This document shows, one piece after another, positions 1 to 44,871 of a DNA stretch of 64,000 nt. The position numbers were made by a program, and so were the translations under genes. This stretch comes from Candidatus Doudnabacteria bacterium RIFCSPHIGHO2_02_FULL_42_25. GTDB taxonomy: Bacteria > Patescibacteriota > Doudnabacteria > UBA920 > O2-02-FULL-48-8. Within the stretch, counting starts at the first letter, position 1. Each line of letters opens with the position of its first letter. The notes beneath the pieces are model-generated. The model worked only from the letters and a program-made list of their open reading frames with translations, did no database searches and had not been told where the DNA came from. The stretch spans positions 10-64,009 of the forward strand of contig MFEQ01000004.1 of NCBI GenBank assembly GCA_001777665.1. Reading direction: 5' to 3'.

Positions 1-96
1 CACACAAAATTAAATGGACTAACTCCAGTCGAGAAGTTAGCCCAAAGTGTCATCATTGACTGTTAACTCTACATGGCTGTGTAATGCGAATTATCA

Positions 97-1386: not shown

Positions 1387-2478
1387 TTATTTTCCGGATT
1401 TAGTTCGATTGTCTAATTTACATAACATCTGGCAGTTTTGTGCAATTGTCTTACCACCTTCGTGCCAAGGAGTGATATGATCCGCTTCCATTTCTTCGAT
1501 ATCATAATGCTTCTTGCATTTTGGACAAATTTCATCTTGCCGCTCATAAGCCTCGCGCTTCATTTTGTCAGTAAAGGCCCGGATATTAAGATATTTTTCT
1601 TGTCTTGTAAGCACGTAGGGATATATGCCGGATTTTTTCGTCACATCTTCATCTTGCATGAGATTCTTGATTTCAACTTCTAGCTTTTTTGGATCAAGTT
1701 TCTTATCTTTGAATTCATTATACAACTCGCCCCAATTCACCACCGCCATCTCGTTTCGATAATTCGGAAACGTTTTTCGCACCCACGCAACCACGTCTTG
1801 AAAATATCCCCACAGTTCGTCAGCATTTTTATCTTTCTGATGATTCGCCATATAATCCGCGATCTCGCCGTTGTTTATCCACGAAAGTGCTGTTTCCAAA
1901 TACTCCTGTCGAATTGGCGTGCCGTTTACTAATTTTCCACCATCATTTGCCAAGCGATATGCTACGCAATTTGATTTACTAAATTTCATTTTTGCGTCGC
2001 TTAACCATGGACCAGTGTAAACAGCATTACGGATTTCCTGATCATTCACCTTCTCGCCATAAGTATTAATAATAGTGAACCAGTCTATTCGCTCCTTATC
2101 AGTCCCTTCGCAAAAATAAACCATAAGTTCGTAATCCAAAATCTCGTCCTGTTCCTCTTTGGTTAAATTATGGAAAAAACGATCGTTCAGAGAAAAATCA
2201 CCCGTAACATATTGTCCGATACTAATGGTGCGCTGTTGACCATCTAACACTTCATATCCGCCGTCGTCCCTAATCATCCAGTACATCACATTTAGCGGGA
2301 AGCCGCTTTTGATAGTTTCGATCACTGCTTTGCTTTGTTCTGGCTTGTATACAAACTCACGCTGATATTTGGGCCGAATATCCAATTTGCCACCATAAGC
2401 AACCACGCCTTCTTCAGCGCTATCTTTATAACCCTTAACTATTTCACGAATTGCAATTTTATGCGGTTCAATTTTCAT
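1387..2478 (-). CDS. DUF262 (ParB-like nuclease, DGQQR motif) fused to C-terminal HNH endonuclease; GmrSD-like
   Basis: VLDGQQRTISI near N-term; C-term CPKCKK...DHITPWHEGG...NCQMLC HNH/zinc finger. Confidence 0.6.
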   Translation of the reverse strand: MKIEPHKIAIREIVKGYKDSAEEGVVAYGGKLDIRPKYQREFVYKPEQSKAVIETIKSGFPLNVMYWMIRDDGGYEVLDGQQRTISIGQYVTGDFSLNDRFFHNLTKEEQDEILDYELMVYFCEGTDKERIDWFTIINTYGEKVNDQEIRNAVYTGPWLSDAKMKFSKSNCVAYRLANDGGKLVNGTPIRQEYLETALSWINNGEIADYMANHQKDKNADELWGYFQDVVAWVRKTFPNYRNEMAVVNWGELYNEFKDKKLDPKKLEVEIKNLMQDEDVTKKSGIYPYVLTRQEKYLNIRAFTDKMKREAYERQDEICPKCKKHYDIEEMEADHITPWHEGGKTIAQNCQMLCKLDNRTKSGK

Positions 2479-2513
2479 ACTAATTTTCTTAATATTTAAA
2501 TGTAACTATTTTT

Positions 2514-3620
2514 TCACTTCTTATTTTTTATGATGATTCTCATATAAATAAACCTGAATCGATTTCCTTCTTTAACTATAGGACTACCATTTAAATCATT
2601 AAAATTATCACCGTCTTCTTTGGTATAGATCTTTATCTTTAAATTATACGGATCATTTCTATGCGTTAATCCAATTATCTCAAACTGTTCGGGGCTATAT
2701 TTATTCAAAAAAGTGATCGGCACACCTATTGCGCCATAATAATCCGTAGGGATATCGGAAACTTTCGAAACCTCTATTGCATCGTAATTATCGTATTTTG
2801 GAAATTCTTCTGAGGTGTATTTTTTATAAAGATCAAGCTTTTCATGTCGTTTCTCCGTATCAAGGTTTGTGTACCAATTGACAGCTGGGACTTTTACATA
2901 TCCATCATTTGGATTATATCCTTTCCCTTTAACAAACTGCTTGTTGGCTTCAAGGTTGTTGTTATAAGGTGTCTTATATACCATTGACATATTAAAACCG
3001 TAACCAGACCACAATTTATTTTGTTTTATTAATCCGAAAACATCTTTATACGTAATAGCGTTCATGTTCCCTAAAATCAAAAACTTTTTATCGTGTTCAA
3101 CAAGCTGAGCTAGGTATTCACGAAAAAGAGAAAATGGTGGATTAGTGACGACGATGTCGGCTTCTTTGAGTAGTTCGATACATTCAGCGCTTCGGAAATC
3201 ACCAGAGCCTTTTAGCGGAGTGGCAACATTAGCATCGTTTTTAAGCAACCATTCTACATCAGATAAACCAACGGAACCGTCGGCGTCTGCATCTGGGACT
3301 TTATTTATTTCTATCTTTAATGGCTGTTTGCCTTTTGATCCAGCCACTTGGAGCAACGGCAACTGACCGCCAACAATTGGCGAACCGCTATAACTCGTGG
3401 TAATGAGCTTCTTGAGCTTTAATTCGTTGAATTTAGAAGCGAAATATTTAAAAAAATTGCTTTCAAATGGATCATCGCAATTACAATATACAACTTTGCC
3501 GCGAAATTGATCTTTGTAGTGCTTCAGCTCTTTTTCAATATCAACTAACTGAGTATAAAACTCATCTTTTTTGGCCTGGCTTGCCTTATGTAAATTTTTA
3601 TTTGATGATTTTTTTTCCAT
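2514..3620 (-). CDS. N6-adenine methyltransferase (gamma-class-like), probably DNA
   Basis: N-terminal DEFYTQ (FxTP-like motif X) and catalytic IVVTNPPFS (motif IV); starts 10 bp after secA stop. Confidence 0.55.
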   Translation of the reverse strand: MEKKSSNKNLHKASQAKKDEFYTQLVDIEKELKHYKDQFRGKVVYCNCDDPFESNFFKYFASKFNELKLKKLITTSYSGSPIVGGQLPLLQVAGSKGKQPLKIEINKVPDADADGSVGLSDVEWLLKNDANVATPLKGSGDFRSAECIELLKEADIVVTNPPFSLFREYLAQLVEHDKKFLILGNMNAITYKDVFGLIKQNKLWSGYGFNMSMVYKTPYNNNLEANKQFVKGKGYNPNDGYVKVPAVNWYTNLDTEKRHEKLDLYKKYTSEEFPKYDNYDAIEVSKVSDIPTDYYGAIGVPITFLNKYSPEQFEIIGLTHRNDPYNLKIKIYTKEDGDNFNDLNGSPIVKEGNRFRFIYMRIIIKNKK

Positions 3621-6292: not shown

Positions 6293-6688
6293 TTAGTTAA
6301 TATTTAATATTCTACGAAATTTCACACCCTCTCTTGTAAAATTTGCTAAGATACCAAGCTTCAAATCGTTTGCTTTAAGATATGCCACCACTTGCTCGAT
6401 ATTTTTCTTTGAAAAGGGCTTATCTTTCTTAATTTCAATTGCTATCTTGGATTCGACAACAAAATCTATATAATATCTACCGATTGATTCACCTTTGTAC
6501 GTTAATGGAACAAATGCTTGTTCTTGAAACTTTATTTTTCTTTTGGCAAATTCTAAAGCCACCGACTTTTGATAATATTTCTCTTGGTAGCCACTCCCTA
6601 GTTCTCTGAACACTTCGATCAAAACTCCGACGATCGCATAACTTAGCTCTGGATACACAAGATCTTGTCTACGAAGACCCGTCTGCAT
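6293..6688 (-). CDS. GxxExxY family protein (PD-(D/E)XK nuclease fold)
   Basis: 131 aa; invariant GxxExxY region (ELGSGYQEKYY), EIK nuclease-like core; flanked by inverted TACGAA repeat arrays. Confidence 0.55.
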   Translation of the reverse strand: MQTGLRRQDLVYPELSYAIVGVLIEVFRELGSGYQEKYYQKSVALEFAKRKIKFQEQAFVPLTYKGESIGRYYIDFVVESKIAIEIKKDKPFSKKNIEQVVAYLKANDLKLGILANFTREGVKFRRILNIN

Positions 6689-9139: not shown

Positions 9140-9475
9140 TTAATTTTTCCTCTTAGCAGATCGTGCCCCTCGACGAGTCAACGTTTGCTTTTTATCTTTA
9201 AACTTTCCAATTTGATCTTTAATTTTCGGGATTACCAAATCAATCGCGGCATAAACGTCTTCTGCTCGGGTTTCTCCACGCATAACTTTCCCGCCGACGA
9301 TTAACATCACTTCTGCACGAAAAACTTGCCCGGATTTGTGATGTTTGTCACGCTCGAGCTCAACTTTCGCATCAGTGGCAACTATAAATTTTCCCAAGTT
9401 GCCAATTTTCTCATTCACATATTGTTTGACTGATGGCGTCAAACTCATATTCGTTCCTTTTATAGATATATTCAT
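9140..9475 (-). CDS. hpf: Ribosome hibernation promoting factor / sigma-54 modulation protein
   Basis: 111 aa; MNISIKGTNMSLTPSVKQYVNEKI... RaiA/HPF fold. Confidence 0.8.
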   Translation of the reverse strand: MNISIKGTNMSLTPSVKQYVNEKIGNLGKFIVATDAKVELERDKHHKSGQVFRAEVMLIVGGKVMRGETRAEDVYAAIDLVIPKIKDQIGKFKDKKQTLTRRGARSAKRKN

Positions 9476-9576
9476 CCCGTTAGAAATAATGATTAGTTAA
9501 TAAATAAAATTATTTAAGATTGTCCCGATAACTATAATCTACACGTAACTTTAAACTCTGTAAAATTTCTAACGGG
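9476..9576. repeat. MITE-like palindromic element, family CCCGTTAGAAAT...ATTTCTAACGGG (copy 1, abuts hpf ATG)
   Basis: 12-bp terminal inverted repeats ~100 bp apart; internal GATTAGTTAAT. Confidence 0.55.
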
Positions 9577-9612
9577 ATTCATGCACTAATATTATCTTAA
9601 GCAAGGGACTTT

Positions 9613-9691
9613 GTAAAATTAACTCGCGCAGGACGACGGTCCGAGCGCGTAGGCCAAAAATTCAGCAGAATTTTATGGCCGGTAATTTTAC
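9613..9691. repeat. 79-nt multi-hairpin structured element, copy 1 (candidate cis-regulatory/ncRNA element)
   Basis: Closing stem GTAAAATTA/TAATTTTAC, hairpins CTCG..GGAC-GACG-GTCC..CGAG and GGCC-AAAAATTC-AGCA-GAATTTTAT-GGCC; ~90% identical to 43693-43771. Confidence 0.6.
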
Positions 9692-9707
9692 AATGATCCC
9701 GAGCGCG

Positions 9708-11078
9708 CTACTTTACCATCTTTCTTGCGAGGTTGTCTATATCTCCTGCGCCCATCATTAATACTAAATCAAAATGTTTTATTTTTTCTTTGATCAATTT
9801 TTCTGTTTGAGACAAGTCTTTGGCATAAGTAGCCTTAGCTCCCTTTTTTGTTAACTCTTCTACCAACTGCTCCGAACTTATATCTTCACCGTGCTCTCTT
9901 CCAGTTACATCAAATATTTCTGGCAAGATTATTTCGTCAGCAGTGACTAATGCCTCGACAAAATCCCCAAATAGCGCTTTCGTTCGATTCCTGTGGTGTG
10001 GCTGAAAAACTACCAAAATCTTTTTATTTGGAAAGAATTCTCGAGCTGCTTGGATCGTTAGCTCCACTCCTGCTGGATGATGAGCGTAATCTGAAATGAC
10101 CGGTTTCAAATAATGATTACCGACTTCTTCAAACCTTCGCCATAGCCCATTAAATTCCGCTAGAGTTTGTTTAATCACGTCAAATTCTACCCCGAGCTTG
10201 ATCGCAGCTAGAATCGCGCCTAATGCATTGCTCATATTAAATATCCCTGGGACTTTGAGGACTATTTGACCAATCATTTCATCATCGTAGTGAAGATCAG
10301 CTATTTGTTCTCTATTGCCTATTTTGCAATTTACAGCCTGCAAATCAGCATAATGGTGGATACCAAATGTAAATTTGTGACAGGCCACGTGTTTGCATAC
10401 ATCCACTGTATTATGATCATCAGCGTTAAAAATCAAAATCCCTTCCGGTCCGATTGATTTAGCATATTCCAAAAATGCGGATTTGATATCTGACAAATCA
10501 TTGTAATAATCCAAATGATCTTCAGCGACATTAGTCACGATAATCATTTTGGGTTTGTTAAACAACATCTTGCGATGATATTCGTCAGATTCAACTACTA
10601 AATATTCACCTTTCCCATACCTAGCATTCGCCTGAAATTTATCCGATTCATTTTTGTGGGAAAGAGTAGAGCCTATTAACACTGTGGGGTCTAGATTCGC
10701 TCTTTCGAGGATTAGGCCCAATAAAGCCGTGGTTGTAGATTTGCCATTGGTTCCGGTCACCCCAATCCCATATTTCTCAACCATTAAATCGCCTAGAGCT
10801 TGAGCTTGGGAAATTTTCGGAGAGGTTATAAAATCCAAATCATCTTTCGGGATATCTTGAGAATAGATAACCAGATCTGGTTCAGGTGTAATTTTTGCGG
10901 GATTTGGACCTATGTCCACATCCATCCCCAAATCTTCCAGGGATTTGGTAATCACTGATTCTTTGATGTCTGAACCGGAAACATTTTTACCCATAGCAAA
11001 AAGAATTCTAGCTAGAGCTGAAACTCCAATTCCTCCAATTCCCAGACAATAAATATTTTTAGCTTGTTTGATATCCAT
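9708..11078 (-). CDS. murC: UDP-N-acetylmuramate--L-alanine ligase
   Basis: 456 aa; N-terminal GIGGIGVSALA Rossmann, Mur ligase central GTNGKSTT. Confidence 0.85.
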   Translation of the reverse strand: MDIKQAKNIYCLGIGGIGVSALARILFAMGKNVSGSDIKESVITKSLEDLGMDVDIGPNPAKITPEPDLVIYSQDIPKDDLDFITSPKISQAQALGDLMVEKYGIGVTGTNGKSTTTALLGLILERANLDPTVLIGSTLSHKNESDKFQANARYGKGEYLVVESDEYHRKMLFNKPKMIIVTNVAEDHLDYYNDLSDIKSAFLEYAKSIGPEGILIFNADDHNTVDVCKHVACHKFTFGIHHYADLQAVNCKIGNREQIADLHYDDEMIGQIVLKVPGIFNMSNALGAILAAIKLGVEFDVIKQTLAEFNGLWRRFEEVGNHYLKPVISDYAHHPAGVELTIQAAREFFPNKKILVVFQPHHRNRTKALFGDFVEALVTADEIILPEIFDVTGREHGEDISSEQLVEELTKKGAKATYAKDLSQTEKLIKEKIKHFDLVLMMGAGDIDNLARKMVK

Positions 11079-11178
11079 CCCGTTAGAAATTTTGATTAGT
11101 TAATTTTTATTATAATTTATATTTAAATGCGCCAAGGTCTGTAAATAGAAAAAGCGACTAAAAAGCATTTCTAACGGG
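11079..11178. repeat. MITE-like palindromic element, same family (copy 2, abuts murC ATG; distal arm lies in patatin 3' coding end)
   Basis: CCCGTTAGAAATTTTGATTAGTTAAT ... ATTTCTAACGGG. Confidence 0.55.
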
Positions 11179-14332: not shown

Positions 14333-15401
14333 ATTTTTCCTCTACGAATTGCTTAATCTTTCTTTGGAATTCGTTTTTATCAAACTGTAGGGCATGGTTT
14401 CTGATTGTTGTGCGATCAAACTTAGTGGCATCAAAATTCCTAACTTTTTCGATAATTGCTTCTTTTGTCTGTTCAGCAAAAAATTCACCCGTGACTCCCT
14501 CTTTTATCGCTTCTAGTGCTCCACCCTTACCGTAGGCGATTACTGGCGTACCGCAAGACTGAGCTTCCAAAAAAGTAATTCCAGCGTCTTCATCTGCTGC
14601 AAAAACATAAGCCTGTGCCTCACTGTAGTGTCTTCGCAATTGTTCATTCGACAGTACTCCCAAGAATTCTATGTTTGATTTGGCCTGGGATTTCAGCGTT
14701 TCCATTTCAGTACCAGATCCTGCAATTTTTAGAGATAACCCCAATTCATTGAAAGCCTGAACTATAACATCTACTTTCTTGTAAGGTTCAAGTCTACTAG
14801 CTGTAAAAAAATAATCTTTTTTTTCACCCATTGGTTGAAACGCTTGTGTGTCTACAGGTGGCGGAATCACAACTGAATCACGATTATAATATTTTTTTAT
14901 ACGCTCCTGGACATTCTTTGAATTCGTAATTATATAATTGGGTCTCTGAGCTGCTTTATAATCCCATTTTCTTAAAAGCGGAACAAACATTTTACCAATT
15001 GCTTTGAAAATTCTAGGATATTTCTGAACGTCTAAATATTTCGATTCTGTCCAAAGAAATCTAGTTGGTGTGTGCATATAACAAATATGGAGCTTGTCGG
15101 TCTTAATTCCTTTTGCAAACGAAGAGGAATCAGAAAGAACTAAATCATACTCTGCAAATTTAAAACTCTCGATTGCAGACGGCATCCAAAGCAAGAGCAA
15201 CCTATGATGGGTTTGGGCCAATGGAAAACTATTTAACCAGCTAATTTTCTTTTGATATTTTTCAAACTCATTACGTGTTTTTTCTTTATTGTAGAGAATC
15301 AAATGGACTTTAGCATCAGGCCAAATTTCAAAAAAATTCTGCAACACTCTTTCAGCACCTCCGATTTGATTCAAAAATTCATGTACTAACGCTACCTTCA
15401 T
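14316..15401 (-). CDS. Glycosyltransferase family 1 (GT4)
   Basis: C-terminal GTPVIAYGKGGALEAIKEGVTGEFF GT-B motif. Confidence 0.7.
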   Translation of the reverse strand: MKVALVHEFLNQIGGAERVLQNFFEIWPDAKVHLILYNKEKTRNEFEKYQKKISWLNSFPLAQTHHRLLLLWMPSAIESFKFAEYDLVLSDSSSFAKGIKTDKLHICYMHTPTRFLWTESKYLDVQKYPRIFKAIGKMFVPLLRKWDYKAAQRPNYIITNSKNVQERIKKYYNRDSVVIPPPVDTQAFQPMGEKKDYFFTASRLEPYKKVDVIVQAFNELGLSLKIAGSGTEMETLKSQAKSNIEFLGVLSNEQLRRHYSEAQAYVFAADEDAGITFLEAQSCGTPVIAYGKGGALEAIKEGVTGEFFAEQTKEAIIEKVRNFDATKFDRTTIRNHALQFDKNEFQRKIKQFVEEKYAHRN

Positions 15402-15799
15402 TGGTGTAACTCCGCAGTTGTTCCCCTCCCTGGAAGGGAGGGGTTAGGGGAGGGTCGAAGAGCTAACTTAAGCGTTAGGTCTGCAAACACTCCATCTAGG
15501 TTATTGAGAATTTGGGAGTTATCATAACGAATGATTTGATAACCTTTGGATATTAGATATTTCGTTCTGGTTTTATCGTAATCTATTCCTTGTGTTGTAA
15601 AATGCGAATCCCCATCTATTTCGATAATTAGATTTAAGGCTGCACAGTAAAAATCTACTATATAGGGACCTATGTCATGCTGCCGACGAAACTTAAGGTT
15701 ATTAAATTGCTTTGCAGAAACCATAGCCCAAAATACCTTCTCTGCTGGAGTAGAGTTGTGTCTTAATTCTCTTCTTTGCTTTGTTCGAGCTAAAACCAT
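15398..15799 (-). CDS. DUF559 endonuclease-domain protein (Vsr-like fold)
   Basis: GPYIVDFYCAALNLIIEIDGDSH... DUF559 core; C-terminal tail encoded by a CCCCTCCC/GGGAGGGG hairpin. Confidence 0.6.
   Translation of the reverse strand: MVLARTKQRRELRHNSTPAEKVFWAMVSAKQFNNLKFRRQHDIGPYIVDFYCAALNLIIEIDGDSHFTTQGIDYDKTRTKYLISKGYQIIRYDNSQILNNLDGVFADLTLKLALRPSPNPSLPGRGTTAELHQ
15423..15443. repeat. GC-rich hairpin CCCCTCCC-TGGA-AGGGAGGGG (family flanking DUF559 genes)
   Basis: Related hairpins at 15826-15846, 25566-25589, 40372-40392, 40804-40824, 40887-40907. Confidence 0.5.
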
Positions 15800-17911: not shown

Positions 17912-18288
17912 GCTTTCTAAGTAAGTGGGTAATCGCCCTGACGGAAACGTCCGGGAGGAAAGTCCGAACACGTGTGAATTGGATGAAGTCTCATGAGTTC
18001 ATGCAGTTCAGCAGGTAGTGGGTAATTCCCACCGGGAGTAATCCTCGAGATGCGAACAGAAACGCTTCGATCAGAAATGGGAGAAGTATCCAGTAATGGA
18101 TAATGCTCGTCGTAAGGCGAGAGTGAAACGGCTAAATTCATACTTGTCAGTGCAATACCGAATAGGTCCTTCACAGGACGGGTAGGTAGCTAGAGTTCTA
18201 CAGCAATGTAGATCCCAGAGAGATGATTGCCTCTCCCGACGTAAGTCGGGATCAGACAGAATTCGGCTTATAGCTTGCTTAGAAAGCA
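17912..18288 (+). ncRNA. rnpB: RNase P RNA (bacterial type A-like)
   Basis: GGGAGGAAAGTCCGAACAC (P4 5' strand) and ACAGAATTCGGCTTATAG (P4 3' strand); P1 pairing GCTTTCTAAGTAAG / CTTGCTTAGAAAGC; promoter immediately upstream. Confidence 0.8.
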
Positions 18289-40426: not shown

Positions 40427-40777
40427 TTAATGATTCAACAAACGATCAATTGTCTCCATTACACCATCAAAATTATCAGAGATATCACTGTTCCAGAATC
40501 TTACCACTTTATACCCAGTCGAGGTCAAGTAATTAGTTCTTATTTGATCTTTAATAATATTTATCTGTTCGTTGTGTTGCCCACCATCAAGCTCAATTAC
40601 TAGTTTCTTCTCAAAACAACAAAAGTCTACAATATATGGACCAATAACAAATTGGCGACGGAATCGATAACCGTTAAATCTCTTTCCTCTGAGATAATGC
40701 CAGAGAGTGTCCTCCCAAGGAGTTTGAAGTTTCCGAAGTTGTCTTGAACTTGATAATAATCTTTTGTTGATTCTCAT
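40427..40777 (-). CDS. DUF559 endonuclease-domain protein
   Basis: Start at MRINKRLL; GPYIVDFCCFEKKLVIELDGGQHNE core; upstream track extension is encoded by GC hairpins. Confidence 0.6.
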   Translation of the reverse strand: MRINKRLLSSSRQLRKLQTPWEDTLWHYLRGKRFNGYRFRRQFVIGPYIVDFCCFEKKLVIELDGGQHNEQINIIKDQIRTNYLTSTGYKVVRFWNSDISDNFDGVMETIDRLLNH

Positions 40778-40803
40778 GGTTGTAAAACTCTCTCCTGCCA
40801 GGA

Positions 40804-40907
40804 GAGAGTGGCCGAAGGCCGAGAGAGGTGCTTTAGCCACCCCACCCCGTCCGGTCAATCGACCGGACGGCCCTCCCCTGTTAGGGGAGGGTGCGTTATT
40901 CTTTGGA
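40804..40907. repeat. Cluster of GC-rich hairpins upstream of DUF559 gene
   Basis: CTCTCTCC-TGCC-AGGAGAGAG; GGCC-GAA-GGCC; CCGTCCGGTC-AA-TCGACCGGACGG; CCCTCCCC-TGTTA-GGGGAGGG. 40804-40836 is a ~75% direct repeat of 40372-40406 on the other side of the gene. Confidence 0.5.
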
Positions 40908-41066
40908 ATAAAAACAGCGACGTTGCCGCCGCTCATCTTTATTAACTCCCCTATTTCTAGGGTTCCGAATGTGTTACTAAGATATTATACCCCATGAAGG
41001 AGAATTATGCAAATTTGCTCTCGATTTGTTATTGCTATAAAATATAATAAATCAGAGGAGGCAACC

Positions 41067-43540: not shown

Positions 43541-43631
43541 ATTCCCTCATTTCTTTTGTCGAACTCCCTCTGCAGGAGTTTCACTCCTTAGGCACTGACA
43601 CTCAGCATGTCAGCACCATGAGGATAGCATA

Positions 43632-43655
43632 ACAAAAAACCGCCCCGAGGGCGAT
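43632..43655 (-). terminator. Rho-independent terminator (minus strand) after ABC permease + structured element
   Basis: Minus-strand CGCCCTCGGGGCG hairpin followed by GTTTTTTGTT. Confidence 0.55.
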
Positions 43656-43692
43656 GTGTAAAAAATCCATTAACCTGGCAGCGAGGCACTTG

Positions 43693-43771
43693 GTAAAATT
43701 AGCTCTCGCAGGACGACGGTCCGAGAGCGCAGGCCAAAAATTCAGCAGAATTTTATGGCCGGTAATTTTAC
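43693..43771. repeat. 79-nt multi-hairpin structured element, copy 2
   Basis: Same architecture; stem differs by paired changes (CTCTCG/CGAGAG vs CTCGCG/CGCGAG-like in copy 1). Confidence 0.6.
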
Positions 43772-43788
43772 CAACGTGCCGAGCGTAA

Positions 43789-44871
43789 TTATTGGCGTTT
43801 TTCTTCGAAGGAGAAGGTCCAGTTGGCTAAAATTACCAGGATGATGGCCCAGCCGATCATCCACCAAATATCAGTACTGATTTGCGCAAAACTTGCGCCT
43901 TTGGTCATGACTTCCCTCATTGAGTGTGAAAGAAAAGTTAGCGGTAAATATTTCGCAATGTTCATAAGCCATGTCGGGAAAGATTCGATAGCAAAAAATG
44001 TTCCGCCCAAAAACAACATCGGGAAAGCGATGAGGTTTGCAAACACCGGTACTGACTCAACTGTCGATGCCATGCCTGATATGGCAAACCCGAGACCCAG
44101 AAACATCAATGAACCTAAAATAGCAATCAATGCTATCAGCCAATACGAACCTATAATTTGGACATTAAAAAATATAACTGCAATGCTGATAAATATTGCG
44201 GTTTGGATCAATGTAATCAGCAATCGCACTATGACATTGGAGAGAACAAATGTAGACGGTCGCATCGGGGTGGCAATCATTCGCTTGAGGATTCCTTTTT
44301 CTTTGAAAGTGACAAACAAAAATGCCACAGTGAAAATCGTCATTTGCATGATCGAGAGAGCCACTAATCCCGGTAGCAAAAAATCGATATACTTTAGATG
44401 ATGAGAATTAATCTCTTCTTTATTAACAGTGAAATGATTGGCACCGCCACTTAGAGTTAGCGCAGTTTTATCGAGCATACCACTGATAATATTTACTGCG
44501 GCCGCTGATTCTGCAGGTTCGTTGGCATTGGCCAAAACCTTGATTTCGCTCGGACCCGGAATTAAATCAGCTGGAATGATAAAAACAGCAGCACGCTTAT
44601 CATCTTGAAGTGCTTTCCGCTCTTCGGACTCGATTCCTTCGTGGATTTCAAAAACCGGAACTTGTTTAATGCCCTCGATGAACTGCTTTGTTTGTGCACT
44701 GGGCGGTGCATTTAAAACAATTCCGACATCGAATTTGGTGGCACTGTCAAAATTGATTAAACCCAAAACTACCATCAGGAAAATTGGGAAAAAGAAAGTA
44801 AAATACATTGCCTGCTTGTTGCGGACAAACATTTTTATCGCGACGACAGTTAGTTTCCAAAGTGTAAACAT
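43789..44871 (-). CDS. ABC-2 type transporter permease
   Basis: 360 aa; N-terminal TM, large periplasmic loop, 5 C-terminal TM helices; 4-bp gap to ATPase gene. Confidence 0.7.
   Translation of the reverse strand: MFTLWKLTVVAIKMFVRNKQAMYFTFFFPIFLMVVLGLINFDSATKFDVGIVLNAPPSAQTKQFIEGIKQVPVFEIHEGIESEERKALQDDKRAAVFIIPADLIPGPSEIKVLANANEPAESAAAVNIISGMLDKTALTLSGGANHFTVNKEEINSHHLKYIDFLLPGLVALSIMQMTIFTVAFLFVTFKEKGILKRMIATPMRPSTFVLSNVIVRLLITLIQTAIFISIAVIFFNVQIIGSYWLIALIAILGSLMFLGLGFAISGMASTVESVPVFANLIAFPMLFLGGTFFAIESFPTWLMNIAKYLPLTFLSHSMREVMTKGASFAQISTDIWWMIGWAIILVILANWTFSFEEKRQ

Follow-up and report, generated by a model that had tools for sequence, protein, structure and literature searches.

An intergenic region of a Candidatus Doudnabacteria contig carries, directly downstream of murC, a strongly structured stretch of DNA that recurs elsewhere in the same contig, raising the question of whether it is a conserved structural RNA, as was supposed when the sequence was first read, or an element of another kind. 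The window is the whole 64-kb stretch of the contig that was analysed. The sequence-only reading had placed a related pair of 79-nt multi-stem structured elements at 9613-9691, 3′ of murC, and at 43693-43771, 3′ of an ABC permease gene; both copies are present at these places and their cores are identical at 75 of 79 positions (95%). The similarity, which had been put at about 10 bp beyond each side of the core, does extend outwards but actually reaches 13-14 nt past these limits on each side, giving a repeated unit of 106 nt in the window (element A; Table 1) with 94 of 106 bases shared (89%). The flanking genes are encoded on the minus strand, and the element is therefore to be read as the reverse complement of the way it was originally written out.

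The two window copies are 34 kb apart and both lie on the sense strand of their flanking genes. Two invariant sub-motifs, 18 and 32 nt long, are each found at exactly two places in the 64 kb, where 0.00-0.01 occurrences would be expected by chance, and a search of the same window with blastn, nhmmer and a covariance model (R1, filters off) detected no third copy. Contigs from two independent assemblies (L005, L024) break off inside element A, a behaviour typical of repeats. Assemblies from ENA, NCBI, JGI and Logan show the same filled sites, which are thus not an assembly artefact. These results confirm that element A is a real repeat with the coordinates listed in Table 1.

Table 1. Coordinates of element A, its parts and neighbouring features (window positions unless another contig is named)
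Feature	Coordinates	Strand	Remarks
Element A copy 1	9600..9705	-	106 nt; similarity limits, fold; covariance model R1 127.4 bits
Copy 1 closing stem, 5′ arm	9681..9704	-	carries invariant tip CGCTCGG; consensus structure and pair table
Copy 1 hairpin 2	9652..9680	-	GGCCATAAAATTC-TGCT-GAATTTTTGGCC; invariant in 3/3 copies
Copy 1 hairpin 1	9625..9649	-	invariant core GGAC-CGTC-GTCC; outer helix CGCGC/GCGCG
Copy 1 closing stem, 3′ arm	9601..9623	-	consensus structure and pair table
Element A copy 2	43680..43785	-	106 nt; covariance model R1 124.5 bits
Copy 2 hairpin 2	43732..43760	-	same sequence as copy 1 hairpin 2
Copy 2 hairpin 1	43702..43729	-	core as copy 1; outer helix register-shifted, GCTCTC/GAGAGC plus 3-nt bulge
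murC, upstream of copy 1	9708..11078	-	TIGR01082, 397 bits; stop TAG at 9710-9708
hpf (ribosome hibernation factor), downstream of copy 1	9140..9475	-	TIGR00741
ABC-2 type permease, upstream of copy 2	43789..44871	-	stop TAA at 43791-43789
Intrinsic terminator downstream of copy 2	43630..43655	-	stem 43655-43639, then T run
Element B (B1, B2)	9476-9576 and 11079-11178	-	~100 nt each, unrelated to element A
Endonuclease-like genes	15398-15799, 40427-40936, 6293-6688; L016:6552-6854; L017:2187-2471; L018:3767-4162

When read in the sense of the genes, each copy folds into a Y in which a closing stem of approximately 20 bp encloses two hairpins at a three-way junction with hardly any unpaired bases. 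The order of parts is the tip CGCTCGG, the 5′ arm, hairpin 2, hairpin 1 and the 3′ arm ending in ...GCT, and hairpin 1 consists of its short core (GGAC-CGTC-GTCC) and an outer helix of 5-6 bp. The two ends of the element (CGCTCGG... and ...CCTCGCT) form an imperfect inverted repeat of about 20 bp. The predicted folding energy lies between -45.9 and -53.2 kcal/mol, compared with about -24 to -27 kcal/mol for shuffled sequences (z = -7.4 to -7.7), and none of 200 shuffles was as stable as element A on either strand. The closing stem around two hairpins that had been recognized at the outset is therefore a genuine feature (z about -7.5), although the stem spans approximately 20 bp rather than 9. 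The fold holds equally with DNA energy parameters (z of -6 to -9), and the antisense strand and the DNA fold as well as the sense RNA or slightly better, so that the folding data fit selection on DNA as well as on RNA.

The search for further copies described below yielded one additional sequence, and differences among the three copies are confined to the closing stem and the hairpin 1 outer helix. No variation was seen in hairpin 2 (29 nt), in the hairpin 1 core (12 nt), in the bases of the junction or at the extreme tips. Within the closing stem, four pairs are changed on both sides with pairing retained and one C-G pair has become U-G, a pair that in copy 1 is tolerated in the sense RNA only; the sole defects are one A-A mismatch and one bulge, with 97.6% of cells paired. 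Pairing values equal to those observed were reached by 7 of 500 shuffles, and controls in which the partner was slid along gave 0-1 compensated pairs. A chimaera that combines the 5′ arm from one copy with the remainder of a different copy is 6-14 kcal/mol less stable. Hairpin 1 behaves differently from what had been proposed, namely that its differences are paired: the four positions at which copies 1 and 2 differ do not form simple covarying pairs and show no covariation in one register, but displace the outer helix by two positions. The two versions match in stability, and the native hairpins (-14.6 and -14.0 kcal/mol) are about 4-5 kcal/mol better than those with mixed arms (-9.6 and -10.5 kcal/mol). 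Template switching from arm to arm of a palindrome could yield matched changes without selection. The earlier suggestion of selection on RNA structure is thus supported as far as the preservation of pairing goes, with four closing-stem pairs compensated, but not for RNA in particular, as both strands and DNA fold alike; across three sequences the covariation is suggestive rather than conclusive, its statistics being thin.

The additional copy came from a pattern scan of one genome per species (185,579 species representatives), which returned six stretches comprising one real match and five chance matches. The real match (L011:728-835) belongs to a Candidatus Doudnabacteria metagenome-assembled genome (JAIFWV010000001.1) and is ~90% identical to element A over 108 nt, such that the length of the element is 106-108 nt across the three copies. 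A lack of both further copies and covariation, which had originally been named as the outcome that would refute the observation, is thus not what was found: there is one extra copy and some covariation in three sequences. The L011 locus has a G+C content of 47%, compared with ~41% in the window, and shares no DNA similarity with the window beyond element A; the identity of the element between the two genomes (~90%) equals that within the window genome (89%).

The same scan returned no further match from the window's own species, which limits the window genome to at most two copies if its representative is in the collection with only the window masked. Overall the copy number is 1-2 per genome. 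Searches with blastn, nhmmer and R1 (filters off) gave no further copies in the murC loci of four relatives or in the 10 kb past the window end, nor in 20 kb around the thioredoxin gene trx of the window organism or 20 kb of the L011 genome. The pattern GGCCNNNNNNTTCNNNNGAANNNNNGGCCN{7,11}GGACNNNNGTCC and partial patterns gave 0, 0 and one chance match in viral contigs; blastn returned just three weak partial matches from a phage collection, which covered 31% of the query at an E value of 0.09 (the limit applied), and no match from a plasmid collection. A comparison of the three open reading frames of element A with 5.8 billion proteins matched nothing. That element A is rare is supported by the genome-representative scan, the one survey from which this statement derives.

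The positions of the copies relative to genes are similar. In keeping with the original observation that the elements directly follow a stop codon, copy 1 starts 2 nt past that of murC and copy 2 starts 3 nt past that of the permease gene, and the copy on L011 lies 2 nt after the TGA (L011:723-725) of trx. All three are in the sense orientation, and a spacer of 16-24 nt is left on the 3′ side. A rough calculation, made post hoc, puts the chance of such stop-codon proximity for all three copies at ~0.002. The terminator that had been noted after copy 2 is indeed an intrinsic terminator, located ~25 nt 3′ of the element, and copy 2 is therefore inside a 3′ UTR; a further intrinsic terminator lies ~20 nt 3′ of the L011 copy.

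Comparison with related genomes separated filled from empty sites. In three relatives (L015, L016, L017; MurC 83-73% identical) the murC stop codon is 4 nt from the ATG of hpf, whereas this gap measures 232 nt in the window organism; in a fourth relative (L018) a different gene lies between murC and hpf. Element A is absent from the orthologous murC-hpf junction in all four. The trx neighbourhood is syntenic among the L011 genome (L038), its closest relative (L031-L033) and the window organism (L034-L036), and here the site is filled in L011/L038 only; the closest relative, whose Trx is 91% identical, and the window organism both have an empty site. Accordingly, 126 nt separate the trx stop codon from the terminator in L011 versus 22 nt in L031, with spacers too diverged for an alignment of the filled and empty sites to fix the borders of the insertion. 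The empty orthologous sites in relatives indicate that each copy is a lineage-specific insertion, and the occurrence of three copies at three unrelated genes in two species with empty orthologous sites points to mobility or horizontal acquisition, not to a conserved feature of any of these genes. The description of the element as conserved is therefore not upheld. The stop codon also differs, being TAA at all six empty sites (L015-L018, L031, L034) and TAG or TGA at two of the three filled ones, a difference that may be fortuitous or may result from the strong structure that follows immediately.

Several familiar identities were considered and set aside. Comparison with Rfam, a check proposed together with the original observation, matched the window element to no family at the gathering threshold or at E ≤ 10 (best sub-threshold scores 13.5 and 12.9 bits, E = 1.1 and 4), and gave no match on L011; ARAGORN made no tRNA-like calls. 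Element A is not an intrinsic terminator, as no T run directly follows copy 1 or copy 2, and the 3′ end of the L011 element holds one weak terminator-like site (GCAAAGTGCCTCGCTTTGT + TTATTATT, 3 GC pairs) against 1.0 in shuffles, a site that is not conserved in the window copies. A hammerhead or other junction ribozyme was rejected given the near absence of unpaired junction bases and the negative Rfam result, and a readthrough peptide given that the frame past the stop codon, which is open in copy 1 and L011, closes after 6 codons in copy 2. Reading the element as a Coxiella QMITE was dropped, the host being Candidatus Doudnabacteria. A REP/REPIN mobilized by a RAYT does not fit inner hairpins that differ in sequence, 1-2 copies per genome and the absence of a Y1-transposase among the scanned window proteins. 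A palindrome-associated element derived from IS200/IS605 was rejected on hairpins that are mutually unrelated and 5′ flanks (GTAGCG, AATTA, TGATT) that share no common motif.

We therefore favour the reading that element A is probably a low-copy, non-autonomous palindromic mobile element of the MITE/ERIC/REP kind that is co-transcribed as part of 3′ UTRs. It has inserted independently at three places, immediately behind the stop codons of murC, trx and the ABC-2 permease gene. The Y-shaped three-way junction can be adopted by either strand, both as RNA and as single-stranded DNA, and according to this model an enzyme acting in trans would recognize the invariant inner hairpins and tips in their folded form, as hairpins or as a cruciform; with an enzyme reading these parts, the stem need only stay paired. 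As each copy lies in sense orientation, with a stop codon before it and a gene or terminator after it, the element is presumably transcribed within the mRNA, so that the Y-shaped RNA would arise 3′ of coding regions or between them. There the ~20-bp stem would be a plausible target of RNase III or a block to 3′ exonucleases, by analogy with Correia, ERIC and REP sequences, and in this way element A may alter mRNA processing or stability, an effect that would be secondary to mobility.

Element A shares several properties with MITEs. It is short and non-coding (stop codons in three of six reading frames) with paired ends of about 20 bp, and its dispersed copies vary in presence and absence at orthologous sites, albeit at low copy number. 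A second small insertion within the same 2 kb (element B, described below) shows that the window genome takes up small insertions. There is no consistent target-site duplication among the three copies, their flanks being CG/TA (copy 1), TA/GC (copy 2) and TT/TT (L011); with shifted borders copy 1 fits a TA duplication and L011 a TT duplication, while copy 2 fits none. The window, a further ~30 kb from the window genome and 20 kb from the L011 genome yielded neither a transposase nor a parent element whose ends match, and no transposase, recombinase or integrase was detected among 27 window proteins (7 scanned with ncbifam, 20 with Pfam) or in the look-up Pfam labels. Among these 27, the only stand-outs from housekeeping or unknown proteins were DUF559 endonuclease-like open reading frames. 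An invariant interior combined with a variable stem is not the classical pattern of MITE conservation. Lacking a consistent target duplication in the three copies, element A provisionally falls outside the strict MITE definition; it is also distinct from REP, ERIC and attC, although it works in a similar way.

Known repeats provide partial precedents. The ERIC or IRU sequences of Enterobacteria, imperfect palindromes of 127 bp, resemble element A in being non-coding, imperfectly palindromic and ~100-130 nt long, in occupying transcribed intergenic regions, often at gene 3′ ends, and in varying between relatives at orthologous sites. ERIC sequences have no sequence similarity to element A, however, and form one long hairpin present in tens to hundreds of copies, whereas element A forms a three-way junction with an invariant interior and has 1-2 copies per genome. 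Correia elements (CREE) of Neisseria are co-transcribed with their neighbours and have terminal inverted repeats that give a long double-stranded stem in the mRNA. They produce a duplication of a TA target and contain promoters as well as an IHF site. Part of this is also described in PMC10969869, which reports that RNase III cleaves Correia elements at their inverted repeats and that ERIC copies at a gene 3′ end alter transcript levels. Such cleavage is the RNA-level effect that we infer for element A, which differs from Correia elements in having no consistent duplication and no conserved promoter, and in its 1-2 copies per genome against more than 100.

REP and REPIN sequences, which are mobilized by RAYT proteins, are likewise palindromic and extragenic, lie 3′ of genes, lack a target duplication and conserve their stem structure rather than their sequence. 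They affect mRNA decay, as RNase R and PNPase act on REP-containing mRNAs (PMC12320835). A REP is 20-40 nt long and a REPIN consists of two inverted copies of the same REP, in contrast to the mutually unrelated inner hairpins of element A; furthermore, no RAYT gene was seen among the scanned window proteins and the copy number is orders of magnitude lower. Similar in size are QMITE2 of Coxiella burnetii and RUP of pneumococcus (107 bp), with sequences and hosts unrelated to those of element A. QMITE2 and RUP are MITEs in the full sense: they show direct repeats or have a parent insertion sequence that is known. Like element A, QMITE2 favours 3′ untranslated regions (PMC10969869).

An alternative model holds that element A is a functional module of the 3′ UTR, with its RNA fold under selection for an action on the mRNA or the terminating ribosome and mobility explaining its arrival only; it might shield the upstream message from 3′ exonucleases, uncouple murC from hpf through cleavage by RNase III, or delay termination. 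We regard this as possible but rather unlikely. The strict position favours it, all three copies being in sense orientation 2-3 nt from the stop codon despite the 16-24 nt available on the 3′ side, and for two of the three, which have a stop codon on one side and an intrinsic terminator on the other, inclusion in the transcript is certain. The compensated changes that maintain the stem, the U-G pair of copy 1 that suits sense RNA only and the TAG or TGA codons at filled sites point the same way, and there is precedent in the changed transcript levels at ERIC-bearing 3′ ends and the RNase III cuts in Correia inverted repeats (PMC10969869). However, the same genes lack element A in close relatives and so do not need it, the three host genes are functionally unrelated, and the antisense strand and DNA fold as well or slightly better. 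Moreover, agreement of three orientations has a chance of 0.25, and at the ancestral 4-nt murC-hpf spacer an insertion could be tolerated only beside the stop codon. Nevertheless, plain random insertion would not predict the 2-3 nt spacing, which may point to a targeting rule or to selection acting on RNA or translation. One could imagine a horizontally moving RNA module, placed 2-3 nt after stop codons by targeting or selection, that acts on the terminating ribosome or the mRNA 3′ end in these genome-reduced CPR bacteria, or an element moved by a structure-specific enzyme, HUH-type or RNA-guided and of a kind so far not associated with substrates like these, that reads the folded junction. 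The invariant hairpins, covarying stem, absent target duplication, stop-codon proximity and stop-codon change are all compatible with such a scheme, to which we attach little weight.

It is also conceivable, although in our judgement quite improbable, that element A is a DNA recognition site for recombination or binding, resembling an integron attC site or a single-strand origin, bound by a site-specific enzyme and carried along with neighbouring DNA. A strong fold as single-stranded DNA, invariant inner hairpins within a covarying stem (as expected for structure-recognized sites), the lack of a target-site duplication and a fixed, attC-like orientation directly after open reading frames would all suit such a site. 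On the other hand, the ends of the element lack the attC core sites RYYYAAC and GTTRRRY, the copies sit among housekeeping genes in conserved order where ~106 nt and no gene cassette have been added, and no integrase or recombinase appears among the 27 window proteins or the look-up Pfam labels. An integron attC site in particular was rejected on these missing core sites and on the insertion of the element alone among such neighbours. Last, it is very improbable indeed that element A is a small RNA gene in its own right, or that it is a product of chance or of assembly. The strong fold and a promoter-like sequence partly in the 3′ arm of copy 1 would agree with a small RNA gene, but this promoter-like match is not conserved in copy 2 or L011, the element has no terminator of its own, and two copies per genome at insertion-type sites speak against a small RNA gene and an artefact alike; chance and artefact are further countered by a repetition far beyond chance that is reproduced in many independent assemblies.

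Taken as a mobile element, element A represents a family that is new, though rare, within a well-known class of elements; it is present in two uncultured Doudnabacteria and is not a conserved gene for a regulatory RNA. Cultivated bacteria are well known to harbour small mobile repeats of palindromic structure, whereas the tiny genomes of Patescibacteria/CPR are thought to be poor in mobile elements, and we found no description in the literature of palindromic small mobile repeats in this group. Elements A and B, each ~100 nt, are wedged into junctions at which the genes of relatives are 4 nt apart or overlap, and so illustrate in a concrete case how intergenic DNA, and possibly new promoters or signals for transcript processing, can be added to such genomes. 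For annotation, element A should be flagged as a repeat and a point of assembly breaks, not as a conserved riboswitch-like RNA. The features that may lead somewhere new are solely the stop-codon proximity and the combination of an invariant core with a covarying stem, as seen in three copies.

Element B, which is present in the same genome and at the same locus, is like element A in its size and its absence from relatives. It differs in its weaker fold (-22 kcal/mol, z = -4, compared with the much stronger, branched fold of element A) and in having a 6-bp target duplication, which element A lacks. Its ends are 12-bp terminal inverted repeats (CCCGTTAGAAAT...ATTTCTAACGGG), with four exact sites observed against 0.39 expected, and its flanks are 6-bp direct repeats, ATGRAT, that include the start codon of the next gene (ATGAAT at hpf, ATGGAT at murC). 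In the relative L015 a single ATGGAT is found at the position of element B, and the patatin and murC genes overlap by 20 nt; B2 has split this overlap in the window organism, where the patatin gene now ends inside B2. B1 and B2 share a conserved right-hand portion of ~35 nt. Element B looks like a textbook MITE. B1 holds a promoter-like sequence, TTTACA-17-TAGATT, and the one associated with copy 1 of element A (TTTACA-17-TAATAT, window 9589-9617, minus strand) lies half in the 3′ arm and half in the spacer and points to hpf.

The window start adjoins a further candidate mobile gene. The 3′ end of a putative transposase gene, identified by eye from an integrase-core-like ending (...YNTKRIHTKLNGLTPVEKL), is located on the opposite strand just beyond the window start (window 1-85; L025:11284-11435). 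Contigs of three independent assemblies all end within ~60 nt of it, as expected at a multi-copy insertion sequence, and the sequence at its end bears no relation to element A. Small, free-standing endonuclease-like genes (DUF559/Vsr-like, PDDEXK_3 and GIY-YIG) occur at differing spots between syntenic Doudnabacteria genes (Table 1), a pattern typical of selfish homing-type genes. The sole Rfam family in the window is a bacterial class A RNase P RNA (17917-18286, plus strand, 127.5 bits), and the 64-kb window contains no tRNA genes. Finally, an EcoRI-type methylase gene and a gene encoding GmrSD_N and HNH domains adjoin secA (window 1387-3620, minus strand); this pair is not listed downstream of secA in the relative L016 and may be a lineage-specific restriction or defence insertion.
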